Shown: in pieces, positions 3,001-9,000 of the stretch
Position numbering within the stretch: the first letter of the stretch is position 1
Layout of the letters: every line of letters starts with the position of its first letter
Assembly (NCBI GenBank): GCA_041649955.1
Contig: JBAZMD010000002.1
Coordinates: 7,709-71,708 of the forward strand
Source: Patescibacteria group bacterium
GTDB lineage: Bacteria > Patescibacteriota > Patescibacteriia > UBA2591 > JAQUPP01
Direction: 5' to 3'
Length of the DNA: 64,000 nucleotides
Program-made: the position numbers

Positions 3001-6000
3001 ATAACTTTTTCAATATTAGCCGGTGTAAGTTTGGCGTCTGAAATCGCCTGCTCAATTGAAACACGGCAGCGATCAACGATCGGTTTGACCAATTCTTCCA
3101 ATTTTGCCCGAGTAATTTTCATTAATAAATGTTTTGGACCTTCATTGGTGGCAGTGATAAACGGCAAATTAATTTCCGTTTCCAAAGCCGAAGACAATTC
3201 AATTTTCGCTTTTTCAGCCGCTTCCTTAACTCTCTGAGTTACCATTTTGTCGGCTTTCAAATCCACACCTTGCTCTTTTTTAAATTCATCAATGATATAA
3301 TTTATCAAAGCTTCGTCCATATCAGTGCCGCCGAGTTTGGTGTCGCCGGAAGTGGAACGAACTTCAAAAACGCCTTGTCCGAAATTCATAATCGTCACAT
3401 CCAATGTTCCGCCGCCGAGATCGAAAACCAAAACTTGCTGATCTTTTTCCTGAACTTTATCCAAACCGTAAGCCAAACTGGCCGCGGTCGGTTCATTAAC
3501 CAAACGGACTATTTCAAGTCCGGCGATCGCTCCGGCATCTTTGGTTGCCTGTCTTTGCGCGTCATTAAAATAAGCCGGTACGGTAACTACCGCTTTTTCC
3601 ACTTTGTCGCCTAAATACATTTCCGCGTCTTTTTTTATTTTTTGCAAAATAAAAGCGGAGATTTGCTGAGGCGTGTATTCTTTGCCGAAAATATTATATT
3701 TAAAGTCAGTGCCCATTTTTCTTTTTGCGGCCAAAATCGTGCCTTCCGGATTTGCCACTGCTTGGCGGCGAGCCGGTTCACCGACCAAAAGTTCGCCTTC
3801 TTTGGTAAAAGCAACATATGACGGGAAAGCTTTTCCGCCAACTAAAGTTGTCCCTTCGGCTGAGGGAATTATTTTTGATTTGCCCGCTTCCATGTAAGAA
3901 GCAGCTGAGTTAGATGTTCCTAAGTCAATTCCTATAATTTTGCTCATAAATTTTACCTCATTTTATATTTAATAATTAATTAATTGATTAATCGGCGAGA
4001 AGTAATCGCCAAAAAAAGTGTCGCACAGTCCGAACGGGCATGGTCTCCGACGAATGTCGGAGGAGTGAGGACGAGCGCCAAACGGCAATTCGCACGCTGG
4101 GCGAATTGACCGTGTCTTTTTTTGGTGATTGCTTCGAGCCCTTTACTTGATAATAACTTTTGCCGGCCTAATAACCCGATCATGCATTGTATATCCGCTT
4201 TGAATTTCTTCAACAATTTCATTTTCTTCACCTTGTTTGTCAATTGCTTCATGAAACATGGGATCAAATTTTTCTCCCAAAGTTTTTATTTTTTCAATAC
4301 CTTGCGCTTTTAAAAAACTTTCAAATTGGTCTTTAATTTTTAAAATACCGTTTGTCCACTCGCTTCGTGGTGAGCTTGTCGAACCATTGTCTTCTATTTC
4401 CGGCAGGTTTTTTACCGAATGATCAAAGCTGTCCATAATCGGCAAAAAATTCAAAATTAATTCCAAATTGGCGAATTTTATCCATTCAATTTTTTCTTTA
4501 TCAATTTCTCTTTCGCGGTTAAGATAATCGGCTTTGGTTCTTTTCCAGCCGTTTAAATATTCTTCCGCTTGTTGTTTGGCTAATTCGAGCTCATCTTGTA
4601 ATTTTTTAATTTCTTCGTCAGACATAAATTTAAACTTTGTCCAATATTTCTTTGGCGTATTCTATTAAAGCTATATTTCTGTTGTAGTCCATTCTCATTG
4701 GCCCCAAAAGACCCAATACTACACCTCTTTTTTGATTTGGCGTATGATATTTGATTAAAATCGTTCCGCAAAAATCACCAAACGGATTGCTTTGCCCCAA
4801 AAAAACGCGGTGGTTGCTTTCTATCTCGTCAAAAATTTTGGCAACGGTTTGATCTAAATGATCTATAATTTGCGAAACATTATAAACCACGTCCATTTGA
4901 TTAAATTCCGGCTGGCTGAATAAAGAAGAAAGTCCGGTGTAATAAAAATTATTTTTATCAAAAGCCAAAATAACCAGTCCGTTGGTCAACTCCGCTATTT
5001 TCTCGCCGATTTTCTTGGCTGAAATTTCCAATGACTGATTTTCTTTTTTAACGCTGTTTAATTTTCTTTTTTCAATTTGACTGACTTCTTCTTGCTGTAA
5101 AAAATTTTCAATATAATAATGATAAGCCTTTTCAGTGGGAATGCGGCCGGCCGAAGTATGCGGCTGGATTAAAAATTTTTTTTTGGTTAATTCCGTCATC
5201 TCATTGCGAATAGTAGCCGAGCTTATTTTTGATTCAAATTTTTCCGCCAAATATTCAGACCCGATCGGCTCTGCGGTTTTGATATATTGAGAGATAATGG
5301 TTTTAAGCAATTGATTTTGCCTTTGGGTTAACATACAAAAATATTATAAAGAGTATTAAACCTTTTTTATCTGCGTTTGCTCGGAAAAGTAATCTACATT
5401 AGTGGATTACTTTTCCCTCGCTCACTTGATAATAAACTAAAAATTAGCACTCGTCAAGTCCGAGTGCTAATAATCTGTGGAAAACTTTTTTAAATACCGA
5501 CTATTTATTCGCTAAATCATTGGCGATTTGATAAATATCCCCCGCTCCCATAATAAGAACTACGTCGTTCGGCTGAATATTTTCTAAAATTAGTTTTTTT
5601 GTTTCTTTTAAATCTCGTCCATATAAAACTTTTTGCCCATTTTTTTGAACCGCTTTGACCAAATCTTTTGAACTTACATCTTGGTCTTTTTCTTCTTCTC
5701 GACCCGCCACATCATAAATTTCCGAAATAATCGTCAAATCAGCGCCTTTAAAACATTTGACAAATTCCTTAAATAATTTTTTGGTCCGATTGTGATGATG
5801 AGGCTGAAATACGGCCACGATTCTTTTTCCGGGATAAAATTCTCTGGCCGCCTGAATAGTGCCGGAAACCGCAGTCGGGTGATGAGCGTAATCACTGATA
5901 AATAACACAGACTGACACTGACTTAACACTGACTTACACTGACATTTTCTGTGTCCGTCTGTGTGCCGTCCGTGTAAGTCCGCGTTCATGATTTCAAATC

Positions 6001-9000
6001 TTCGCCAAATTCCGGAGAATTTTTCTACGGATTTTTTAATTACTTCGGGTTTAACGCCCAAAGCCAAAGCGCCGGCAGTTGCGGCCAAGACATTGTAAAT
6101 ATTAAAAATTCCCGGAACTTTTAACCGAAAATTGTAAATTTTGCCCTTAAAACATAAATCAAAAATTTGTTCGCCGTGTTTGGTAATAATATTTTTTGCC
6201 ATTACCTCTGCCTGACTTTTAATGCCAAAAGTTATTGTCTTGTTTTTGGATTTAATCTTTTTTAAATTAACATCATCGGCATTTGCAATCAGAATTCCAT
6301 TTTTAGGCAATTTTTTAATATATGTTTTAAAAGTTCTGATTAAATGATTAATGTTTTTATAATAATCAGTGTGATCCAATTCCAAATTATTCAGAATAAT
6401 CATTTTAGGCGACAAATTCAACATATGAGCTCGCCATTCGCAGGCTTCAACCACAAACACAGACTTACGCGGACAGGACACTGACCTACACTGACTGTCT
6501 GTCTTAGTCTGTGTTAAGTCCGTATTAGTCCGTGATATGCGTAGATTTCCATTCCATTGAGGCACCTTGCTTCCGACAATCACTAATGGGTCTATTTTGG
6601 CTTGTTCTAAAATTAAACCTAAAATCGCCGTGGTAGTGCTTTTGCCATGCGTGCCGCTGACAGCAATGGTAAATTTTTCTTTGCTTAATTCTCCCAAAAA
6701 TTCCGGATAAGAAAGCTGAGGAATGGATAATTTTTTTGCTTTTATTCTTTCCGGATTATTTTTTTCCACTGCCGGCGAATAAATAACCAAATCTGTATCG
6801 GCTGACAAATTTTCCGCTTCATGGCCTTGGTAAAATTTAACTCCCATTTTTTCCAGTTTCTTGATTATTTCGGAAGAATTCAAATCAGAGCCAAAAACTT
6901 TTTTGCCCTGTTGAACCATCATTTTTGCCAAAGCGCTGACCCCGATTCCGCCCAAGCCGATAAAATGTATTTTTTTGATTTTTCGCCCGCCTAAATTTTT
7001 TATTGACATAAATAACGTTTAAGTGATTTTTTAATATAATTTCTCCCCCACCCGGATTTAAAAAATCTTTCTCGTTCTTTGGCATCCCCTGAATGAAGAT
7101 ATGCTTCATAATAAACCAAAGTAAATGGCGCTCTTGATTTAGTAGACGTAGACATTTTATTATTGTGTTCTTCTAGTCTCTTTCTTAAATCTTTTGTAAA
7201 GCCAACATAAAATTTACCATCTTTCAAACTGCGCAAAATGTATACGTAATAAAAAATTTTGGCGGGCATGGCTATTATCTTACACTTTTTTTATAAAAAA
7301 AATAGCCCCCTTAATTCAGAGGGCTATTTATTTTATATTCTTCTTCTTTAGTTTCATTCTCTAAAAATTTTATAAATGTCGCTTGCGGACATTTTTCCGG
7401 ATATCGCAAACATTTATGCGTATAGATAGAATGAAGAGCATTTTCCCAATACCTTTTTTTATTTACCGGTATTTTTAATTTTCTAAGAATAATTTCTCCG
7501 TCTATCCAAGCTATCCACTCTGACCAAGGACAACTCACATGATCATCCTTGTCTTTTAACTCCATAGCACAAGCCATAAACTTTTTACGGCGGTATTGCA
7601 AAACATGGCCTATTTCATGTGCTAAACTATTAACTCCTCTCCACCGCAGCCATGGAATATAAATTGCCCTGAGATCCCTAATTTCAACCACATCATGTTC
7701 ACAAACCTTATTGCTACGATTAAAATGAAGTGCCGTATTACTACAAAATGCGCAAGGCAAACCCTTTTCTATGGCTATTCCATTTGATTCAGCATAAGCC
7801 AAAAACTTGGAAAAAACCGGCGACTTTTTTAAGTCGTATAATAATCTCCTGTTCTGATAAGGATGAATCAATCGAAATAAAACCTTATGGCAGAATGGAA
7901 TTAATACGCTAAAAGTCAAAAAATAGGCTAGCCCTACAAATGCTGCTCCAGCTCCGAATAAAATAATAAAAAATATTATTATATTTAAAAGATCCATGAT
8001 CTCCTCCTAGTTTCCAAACTTTATTGTCTGGATTACTATTATTTAAGCATATTTTTTGGTTTTTGTCAAGATCTATTTTTTAAATTAATATATTGAAAAC
8101 ATATAAATTAAAAAGACCCTTGCCGAACAAAAGCAAGGGCCTCAGTTTAAATCTTTCTCTCAATCGTTTTTACGGAAACGAATCAATTGAGTGCCTTCGT
8201 TCCAACTATCCTCAAAAATGCCCAAAAAAAATTCACTGCTGCTTCCCTGATTTTTGAGGGTCGCCACACCATGGACTTTGTCAGAATTTACCCAGAGATT
8301 ATTTTTTTCGTCAAAAGACACTATTAATCCTTGTGGTAATTTATCTCTCTTGATTGCCCATAAAAGAGACAATCCAGGGGCACTGGTAAAAAACTTATCC
8401 TTCCCCTTGCGCAAGAAAGAAATGCAATATTCCGAACTTATTCTATGTTTGGCTATAAAAATATCAACCATACATTTTTCACCCGGTTGAAGCCTATACG
8501 ATACATTCCCAAAGTTTTTATCATTAATTGAATCATCATAGAAACAGAATTCTTGTCCGTGCTCTTTATAAAAATTTTCCAACTGCCCTTTGGAATTGTA
8601 ATCCCCTGGTACTTCTAACTTGATACTTTCCATAAAAACAATTCTTTTATCCATTCTCCCCCCCCTTTTTTTTAATTTTCTATTGTCTATTATATTATAT
8701 CTTTATTTTTTGTCAATCAAATATTTTATTCTAAATTGGATATACTAATTTAACAGACCCTTACCGAAGCAAGGGTCTGAGTTTAATTTTCTACAAAGAG
8801 CTAACTGGAGTTTCCGCATTCACAGAAGCAAAGCAGACAGAAGCTGTCGTTCCAACCATCTTCAAAGCGGCCAAGGCCTAAATTGAATTTGGAAATGTCA
8901 TCAGAACAGCGGAAGATGTTCGCTATGCGGTGGCTACCGTTAGGGTCAACCCAAAGAGCGCTTCGTTCATCAAATGAGACGGACCACTTACCGACTGGAA

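Follow-up and report, generated by a model that had tools for sequence, protein, structure and literature searches.

The murC gene of a Patescibacteria group bacterium contains two segments built from short tandem units followed by their approximate reverse complement, which raises the question what these segments are and how they come to lie in frame within a core enzyme. We analysed a stretch of 64,000 nucleotides carrying this gene (contig JBAZMD010000002.1, positions 7,709 to 71,708 of the forward strand; hereafter the window), for which a preliminary description had proposed a family of in-frame palindromic insertions in housekeeping genes analogous to the Rickettsia palindromic elements (RPEs). 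Among bacteria, Rickettsia is the best-known case of coding palindromes lying in frame (PMC10969869). Our data suggest, with a probability of about one half, a short-unit repeat family behaving like the RPEs, but not being a member of that family, which spreads at the level of the DNA.

The building block of the repeats is a heptamer core, CRCNGAY, joined to a spacer of 3-4 nt, resulting in a period of 10-11 nt. Three to five of these units form an array, mostly with an inverted array after them, and a long imperfect hairpin is possible on either strand. The host murC (5501..7009, minus strand) encodes a protein of 502 aa with the Pfam domains Mur_ligase, Mur_ligase_M and Mur_ligase_C, the best matches of which are proteins named 'Patescibacteria group bacterium', Kuenenbacteria proteins showing ~52-55% identity. 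Its palindromic element at site B, murC-B (5906..5984, minus strand), encodes the peptide NADLHGRHTDGHRKCQCKSVLSQCQSV between RRFE and SDYAHHP and reads on the coding strand as four CRCNGAC-type units (among them CGCGGAC, CACGGAC and CACAGAC), a 5-nt loop and four inverted units (GTCAGTG three times and GTCTGTG). The palindromic element at site A, murC-A (6457..6534, minus strand), is more decayed and encodes SRTNTDLTQTKTDSQCRSVSCPRKSV between GNLR and FVVEACE. The layout reported before for both elements, at 5906-5984 and 6457-6532, is borne out by the sequence: on the coding strand units of the type CACGGACTTA and CACAGACTAA come first, followed by a short loop and an inverted run of the type TAAGTCAGTG.

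Three further genes identified by Pfam, all on the minus strand, carry related copies. In secA (35907..38651) a one-armed copy with three to four CACRGAC units on the coding strand (38109..38148, minus strand) encodes AQTNTDETRTDTE in the variable region of nucleotide-binding domain 1 (NBD1), in pgk (44018..45328) a palindromic copy (44105..44185, minus strand) encodes AQTNTDKNTDLHGNRQRKSVLSQYGS directly before the conserved STGGGA strand, and in a gene for a Wzy_C/TPR membrane protein, here called wzy (45920..48211), a one-armed copy with six to seven diverged units such as CGCGAAC, CGCGGAC and CACAGAC (46846..46915, minus strand) encodes KDSRELDTDLRELNADSRGTKHG.

These copies form a true repeat family, as had been proposed. 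Clusters of at least three units are observed five times in the window compared to 0.055 in shuffles, a stricter chained scan yields six arms compared to 0.01 and no additional copies anywhere in the window, and there are no unit clusters in the 10 kb past the window end. Of the two words quoted in the preliminary description, CTGACTTAACACTGAC has three matches in the window with up to 3 mismatches (0.14 expected) and GTCCGTGTAAGTC twelve with up to 2 mismatches (0.23 expected), all of them located in the five reported loci. The stretches of 76-111 nt holding the copies have a GC content of 0.42-0.50 compared to 0.35 for the window, confirming that the elements are GC-richer than their surroundings. 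A multi-unit string of 21 nt is common to murC-B and pgk and one of 18 nt to secA and pgk, and a left end coding for (Q/R)TNTD is common to murC-A, pgk and secA and is found again in KsgA (L145) and PCMT (L040), which argues for imported sequence rather than local expansion. One inverted pair of units, CTGACTTAACGTCCGG, located between the genes for cofactor-independent phosphoglycerate mutase (iPGM) and HPF (39340..39356), which had been taken as an intergenic partial unit, provides weak evidence; it was recovered by none of the cluster scans and, being a doubtful member of the family, was excluded from the copy count. It adjoins an inverted repeat located between the same two genes at 39257-39330 (TACCCCCTCCTTTTAGACGCTCTT / AAGAGCGCTCAAAAGGAGGGGGTA; 24-nt arms, 88% complementary, 26 nt apart).

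A comparison with syntenic DNA of the closest relatives, which have 85-93% nucleotide identity to the window (L249 lying on the same 256-kb contig as L002), reveals that the copies are lineage-specific. Their presence differs among the sister genomes at four of the five window sites, and the occupancy pattern is incongruent between sites. All four alleles contain murC-A, in versions that differ by 6 and 21 nt in length, murC-B is present in L002 and absent from L005 and L001, the pgk and secA copies are present in L250 and absent from L249, in line with the PGK proteins P0123 (L250, element present) and P0122 (L249, element absent), and the wzy copy at 46846 is absent from both L249 and L250. 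At a second site in the wzy/TPR gene (L250:7891-7989) L250 alone holds an 8-unit one-armed CACGGAC array, in frame and encoding 31 extra aa, which has a small hairpin, TCTACTTTTACAAGTAGA, in front of it; neither the window nor L249 is filled at this site. All length differences between the murC alleles are multiples of 3. The empty murC-B alleles read EK(I/V)GEYKKAIIISDY, a motif shared by distant element-free orthologues, e.g. as EKVGEYKGAIIISDY in P0045, and this retention of EKVGEYKxAIIISDY in the empty allele and in distant orthologues shows that the empty state is ancestral. The loops of the empty alleles are often occupied by other short tandem repeats: the pgk loop of L249 contains a ATTTCTAATTT.. 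repeat, encoding ISNFQFLISK, and at the site equivalent to 46846 the wzy gene holds a run of AATCCGA repeats in L249 and CCACAAA four times in L250.

Since all sequences analysed are metagenome-assembled, the elements might be artefacts of assembly or sequencing. However, the same elements are found at the same sites, with few substitutions and with in-frame length differences, in independent JGI, ENA, NCBI and Logan assemblies, and the open reading frames (ORFs) remain open, so that we assign this explanation a negligible probability; chimeric assembly, a concern raised at the outset, was rejected in view of the agreement of the independent assemblies. The window population (contig k141_149838) and one or more sister populations (k141_1536599, k141_2338483) are found in one metagenome, ENA ERZ27247363 (L006, L128/L248, L250), and this co-occurrence makes an exchange of alleles between them physically plausible.

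All five copies are stop-free in the frame of their host, as the preliminary description had stated for the genic copies. Among the six possible frames one, two and one are stop-free in the three palindromic copies, the host frame being among them. Owing to the 10-11-nt period the reading frame rotates along each copy, and the reading frame said to be common to all copies is restricted to the left end (Q/R)TNTD shared by murC-A, pgk and secA and is lost along the rest. The common orientation gives little information, being automatic for palindromes, and one-armed arrays are translated in both orientations elsewhere in the Patescibacteria (SQRKSALSQRESA in L055, KSAFNIRVNPRLYPRESAF in P0007). 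The open frames and the lengths in multiples of three suggest that the element segments are translated as extra loops and not removed. We rejected an intein, an intron or a translational bypass element, as the segments contain no stop codons, leave the host frame intact and alter the length compared to the empty alleles by a multiple of 3; with 13-27 aa they are moreover too short for an intein.

RNA folding of the coding strand yields hairpins of -37.5 kcal/mol for murC-B (z -6.1 compared to shuffles), -30.6 kcal/mol for murC-A (z -3.0) and -27.8 kcal/mol for the pgk copy (z -4.3), with a central mismatch in nearly every unit of the stems (CACGGAC opposite GTCAGTG). The secA and wzy copies, having one type of arm, show no hairpin on RNA folding, so that the term palindromic is appropriate for murC-B, murC-A and pgk but not for these two. 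A consensus fold of murC-A over four relatives was uninformative, the tandem units pairing in several registers.

In the proteins, both MurC segments are extra in comparison with the solved chains 6cau and 9ir5, and the PGK segment is extra in comparison with T. maritima PGK (1vpe), in agreement with the loops reported between conserved motifs. The SecA copy falls inside a variable part of NBD1 which is also present in T. maritima SecA (3din), and a net insertion in SecA can therefore not be shown. In an AlphaFold model of the window MurC (mean predicted local distance difference test score, pLDDT, of 85.7) exactly two segments have a pLDDT below 50, i.e. residues 162-180 (site A) and 343-365 (site B). 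These are the element-encoded loops, and they are modelled without secondary structure, so that the MurC fold is predicted to be intact around two disordered loops. Site B is located at the border of the middle and the C-terminal domains.

It is conceivable that the encoded peptides (TNTD.., ..RKSV.. and Cys-containing ones) are selected for a role in the protein, i.e. in interaction, localisation or metal binding, given that many lineages have similar peptides in the same loops and that the right arm of murC-B codes for three Cys. We regard this as very improbable: the peptides change freely between close relatives (ISRTNTDLTQTKTDSQCRSVSCPRKSV compared to MTQTDTDGTRTGTECQCRSVSGPCKSV), sister genomes exist without the peptides, disorder is predicted for the segments, and the similarity tracks the DNA unit and not an amino-acid pattern because the frame rotates along the copy. 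Searching for protein words of the concatenated element peptides yielded no candidate, and no match at E <= 0.001 was obtained when the 34-aa peptide of the pgk loop was used in an exhaustive HMMER search, this query being too short for the database.

The repeat family is not special to the window genome, and the same enzyme loops are used repeatedly across the phylum, with different cores. An alignment of 28 MurC proteins shows inserts of variable length at sites A and B in many lineages, and their occupancy on a neighbour-joining tree of MurC is patchy, as seen for P0013 compared to P0014 and P0019, for P0029 compared to P0044 and for P0012, which is nested among carriers. Two distant carriers have the same architecture at the DNA level with other cores, that of L126 being CGCRGAT/ATCYGCG and that of L127 CGCNGAC, and the junction layout at site B is in both as in the window, i.e. 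E-(I/L)-(I/M)-N-A-D ... S-(A/V)-x-x-x-S-D-Y. The L126 core recurs at the two murC sites of that genome and in a topA copy. The PGK loop of the window is also occupied in P0129, P0131, P0135 and L066, a UvrB loop directly before the DESH motif is occupied in the two unrelated genomes L010 and L014, and in-frame arrays are also found in UvrA, PCMT, a class-I tRNA synthetase and KsgA on contigs that are low in GC and resemble Patescibacteria.

We propose a model in which the family would spread as DNA within and between closely related Patescibacteria. With a genome that is almost wholly coding, new copies would fall in genes, and they would survive only if their length is a multiple of three, if they are stop-free in the host frame and if they lie in a tolerant surface loop. 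The surviving copies would then be translated as disordered loops, and an old copy would drift neutrally, its length being altered by slippage of units. Copying could be achieved by a trans-acting hairpin-specific enzyme of the kind known for the REP (repetitive extragenic palindromic) sequences and their REP-associated tyrosine transposases (RAYTs), or by recombination at microhomology. murC-A, the oldest copy, behaves as a neutral passenger would: its identity between alleles (0.857, 0.818 and 0.789) is close to that of third codon positions of the same gene (0.844, 0.807 and 0.796, respectively), which argues against selection on its peptide or on its hairpin.

A number of observations weigh against this model. 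Between sisters, 96-99% of the positions agree in the copies of pgk, secA and murC-B, while the third codon positions in 150 nt on each side of the element have an identity of ~80%. Between the window and L250, 76 of 77 element positions are identical for pgk (Fisher P 2e-5) and 39 of 40 for secA (P 7e-3); between the window and L002, 76 of 79 are identical for murC-B (P 1e-3). The high identity ends at the borders of the element, unlike in an ordinary recombination tract and unlike in neutral sequence inherited from a common ancestor. Some copies are therefore too alike between sisters for a purely neutral passenger, and either a very recent site-directed arrival without co-conversion of the flanks or selection at the nucleotide level is needed. 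In the former case pgk, secA and murC-B copies would have arrived after the split of the sister lineages, at the same junctions and from a near-identical donor. Further points against the model are that the translation of the inserts is deduced from their open frames, and that neither a transposase nor a RAYT/Y1-transposase nor any other candidate enzyme was found among the Pfam-annotated genes of the fetched loci, which cover most of the window, ~16-26 kb of it being unannotated.

Selection at the nucleotide level leads to the main alternative, according to which the arrays are functional nucleic-acid elements, being genic only since intergenic space is nearly nil, with the peptide as a tolerated by-product. 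As DNA they could be phased binding sites for a sequence-specific protein, and as RNA a regulatory mRNA hairpin, serving either as translational pause at domain borders or as target of an RNase. The near-identity ending at the borders agrees with this, as do the strong hairpins, the position of murC-B at a domain border and the GC-rich bacteria described below, in which the matches listed keep the heptamer and the period of 10 with nearly free spacers. Yet the drift of murC-A matches that of third codon positions, sisters are devoid of four of the five copies and show no visible compensation, cores decay (GGA to AGA) and nearly every arm unit has a mismatch, two copies have no second arm, and unrelated repeats hold the same loops in sister genomes. 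We consider this alternative possible, but on balance unlikely.

The junctions between element and host weigh against our model as well. The preliminary description had proposed lineage-specific insertions, and the absence from sister genomes supports lineage specificity, but the insertions are not clean. Comparison of filled and empty alleles of murC-B, pgk, secA and the L250 wzy site shows replacement of at least 18-36 nt, and no target-site duplication or direct repeat was found at these four sites; on arrival, the elements in pgk, in secA and at the second wzy site each took the place of several codons of the loop. There are no sharp element ends, the flanking codons changing along with the element. 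At murC-B the differing block (5894..5991, minus strand) comprises ~99 nt replacing 36 nt of the empty allele, a net gain of 63 nt, corresponding at the peptide level to an exchange of KIGEYKKAIIIS for IM, 27 aa and LFIS, and the neighbouring Ser codon is changed from TCC to AGT, giving an additional unit-like ATCAGTG.

Such junctions are what could be expected if the arrays were made in situ, either by slippage and strand-switching on a unit-like seed or by templated repeat addition and fold-back synthesis during repair of double-strand breaks, as break repair would also delete a few codons. The coexistence of one-armed and two-armed forms, length steps that fit pairs of units (21 nt), spacers differing between copies of one genome, native codons resembling units at the junctions (ATCAGTG, Ile-Ser-Asp, in murC-B; AAGTC, Lys-Ser, in murC-A) and the other short tandem repeats in the same loops of sister genomes are also in favour of a local origin. 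It is difficult to reconcile with unrelated genes sharing one heptamer and identical multi-unit strings, with each genome having its own core at all its sites and with the lack of an obvious seed in the empty murC-B site, and local slippage leaves the identical junctions in different lineages unexplained. We therefore judge an origin in situ to be improbable.

The architecture is not restricted to the Patescibacteria. Species-representative genomes were scanned with GTCNGYGTAAGTCNGYGT, for which ~1000 chance matches are expected, so that only multi-unit contexts were counted, and metagenome contigs were scanned with GACTAAYACGGACN{2,5}CRCRGACN{2,5}CRC, for which ~9 chance matches are expected. 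Among the matches listed, many lie on contigs with a GC content of 55-66%, the named carriers including Thermoguttaceae, Pirellulales, Hydrogenedentota, Syntrophobacteraceae and Marinobacter, and the GC-rich elements are very regular, following the scheme (CACGGAC NNN)4-5 - loop - (NNN GTCCGTG)4-5. Most of these listed elements lie outside long ORFs by a simple test for spanning ORFs; the (CACGGAC NNN)4-5 architecture thus appears to be common and mostly intergenic in GC-rich bacteria of several phyla. Considering only units outside the searched pattern, 138 of 192 in the matches listed are exactly CACGGAC and 155 of 192 keep the period of 10, the 3-nt spacers in these matches being nearly free (34 kinds, 4.3 of 6 bits). 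This again weighs against our model, as GC-rich copies on one contig keep the heptamer and differ in their spacers, unlike decaying copies of a master element.

From these data a broader reading can be put forward, according to which the heptamer arrays constitute an unnamed prokaryotic repeat class spanning phyla, the core of which is read or written by a conserved machinery; the copies in the Patescibacteria would be working sites forced into genes or repair scars, kept near-identical by the machinery and not by descent. The machinery could be a protein binding CA(N)GGAC sites phased by 10 bp, or a repeat-adding or fold-back repair at DNA breaks. We hold this reading to be doubtful.

Related arrays with other cores, such as AGTGGAC, CATGGAC, CGCGGAA and CGCTGAC, are present in the scanned data. 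On one contig (L241:1447-1523 and 1589-1637) CGCTGAC units are arranged head to tail with no spacer, i.e. with a period of 7, and followed by an inverted array, and the same contig also holds an ordinary CACGGAC palindrome with 10-nt phasing. On contigs of 30-32% GC we observed AGTGGAC with a 3-nt spacer in 15 tandem copies (L169:4-154) and two inverted AGTGGAC arrays ~70 nt apart (L207:642-720 and 794-845). The AGTGGAC unit with its spacer resembles a DnaA box of the TTGTCCACA type; as it is only this variant, in other contigs, that does so, we rejected DnaA boxes as the identity of the repeats. The CA(N)GGAC core presumably fits the CsrA/RsmE consensus. Rfam at gathering score returned only tRNAs in the window and ten element-carrying loci, and a BLAST search of the perfect element against plasmids and phages returned nothing, the low-complexity filter possibly being involved. 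Our literature search retrieved no paper containing two-unit repeat strings or the typical peptides, nor one on in-frame repeats in Patescibacteria.

The analogy to the RPEs is a fair one with respect to behaviour but does not extend to the structure of the unit. According to the summary of Ogata et al. 2000 given in PMC10969869, RPEs form families of ~150 bp, each with a conserved peptide, from Rickettsia, and this 2024 review calls their frequency in Rickettsia unusually high. As described there, both are palindromic repeats of reduced genomes which lie in frame within housekeeping genes unrelated to one another, at fold-compatible locations, both are translated into additional segments that the fold presumably tolerates (for the elements analysed here as judged from open frames), and neither has a known transposase or mechanism. 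The RPE hairpin has its counterpart in murC-B, murC-A and pgk and none in secA and wzy. The elements described here are set apart from RPEs, as far as that summary describes these, by their size of 40-100 nt, by tandem units of 10-11 nt composed of a 7-nt core and a 3-4-nt spacer, and by a genome-specific heptamer. They are moreover sometimes one-armed, replace loop codons, recur at the same loops throughout the phylum and have intergenic relatives in other phyla.

With REP sequences and their doublets, the REPINs, the elements share short hairpin repeats made of two inverted halves, a sequence specific to the genome and many copies, and the GC-rich relatives appear mostly intergenic, as REPs are. 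REP/REPIN elements are mobilised by RAYT transposases. They differ in that each arm of the elements described here is a phased tandem array and in that REPs are extragenic with a GTAG or CGTC head (PMC3733652), whereas all five window copies are intragenic. By inspection, no consistent GTAG/CGTC tag was found at the element ends. Heptamer tandem repeats without spacer are known as the intergenic short tandemly repeated repetitive (STRR) sequences of cyanobacteria, from which our spaced and genic elements differ. Mitochondrial GC clusters and byp elements are hairpins rich in GC that invade AT-rich genomes, coding regions among them; the ribosome bypasses the byps, which need not be in frame, while all copies described here are in frame and stop-free.

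[quoted passage not shown] Like the Coxiella QMITE (PMC5896051) and the enterobacterial RU/ERIC (PMC2759123; see also PMC10969869), the elements found here are small non-autonomous repeats with inverted ends adding peptides to ORFs, but MITEs have terminal inverted repeats, target-site duplications and a parent insertion sequence, none of which we found at the sites compared or among the annotated genes of the loci covering most of the window, the arms being inverted arrays without fixed termini. The coding palindromes of Nematomorpha mitochondria (PMC6649704) are similar in being long inverted repeats in conserved protein genes with both arms translated; they are perfect, reach 284 bp, belong to animal mitochondria and are not dispersed unit-based copies. 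Intragenic TIGR arrays in tas genes, including those of the Candidate Phyla Radiation (CPR), are likewise in-frame hairpin repeats in disordered regions, but consist of tigRNA units, each with box C/D motifs, two spacers and a loop of ~9 nt, and are located within or beside a tas gene with a Nop domain (bioRxiv 10.64898/2026.09.09.750476). A TIGR array was rejected, since the loops are ~5 nt here, there is no room for spacers and the elements reside in housekeeping genes unrelated to tas; the annotation of the fetched loci, which cover most of the window, contains no gene with a Nop domain.

In this CPR bacterium with its tiny genome the elements provide a parallel to the RPEs that was found in no paper of our literature search. 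The Patescibacteria are a very large and poorly understood radiation, and the enzymes affected are core enzymes, i.e. MurC, PGK, SecA, UvrA, UvrB, KsgA and a tRNA synthetase. The elements offer a concrete source for many lineage-specific insertions in CPR proteins and are a warning for alignments, phylogenies and structure predictions, all of which can be led astray by such segments; they also represent natural maps of insertion tolerance in essential enzymes. Near-identical copies with diverged flanks, together with a heptamer conserved and spacers left free across phyla, point to a repeat-maintenance mechanism that can be tested.

Several other repeats and genes were observed in the window. 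A second in-frame insert in pgk at ~45060-45125 (minus strand) differs from the element described above; it consists of two short hairpins side by side, CCCCGAC(8 nt)GTCGGGG and CTCCGAC(6 nt)GTCGGAG, and encodes NSTPTPIGRGSDRSVGE. It is also found in P0122 and is absent from P0123 and most orthologues. An AT-rich family of TTTCTAATTT-like repeats is intergenic at 22168-22227 and 40980-41071, and a similar sequence is translated as ISNFQFLISK in the PGK loop of L249, exactly at the site of the heptamer element of the window. Directly upstream of the secA start, in the gap between HPF and secA, lies an AT-rich palindrome of 84 nt (38662-38745; overlapping 46-nt arms, 76% complementary). The look-up of the window ORF at 20828-22171 gave no record.

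At ~49650-49900 the gene orientation changes from minus to plus, the first plus-strand gene encoding a UDP-glucose/GDP-mannose dehydrogenase at the head of a polysaccharide cluster of ~25 kb, in which the cluster scans found no heptamer arrays. An oriC at this strand switch (~49.7 kb) was rejected, as it is a divergent operon border with UDP-glucose dehydrogenase as first plus-strand gene. Two iPGM paralogues (39373-40953 and 41071-42648, minus strand) are arranged in tandem with ~71% nucleotide identity in repeated stretches, this duplication being conserved in sister genomes. Finally, a stand-alone GIY-YIG ORF of 89 aa (7000-7269, minus strand) overlaps the murC start by 10 nt; no GIY-YIG gene is called beside murC in L002, L005 and L001, while L001 has one between parA and parB. 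The gene looks like a mobile one.

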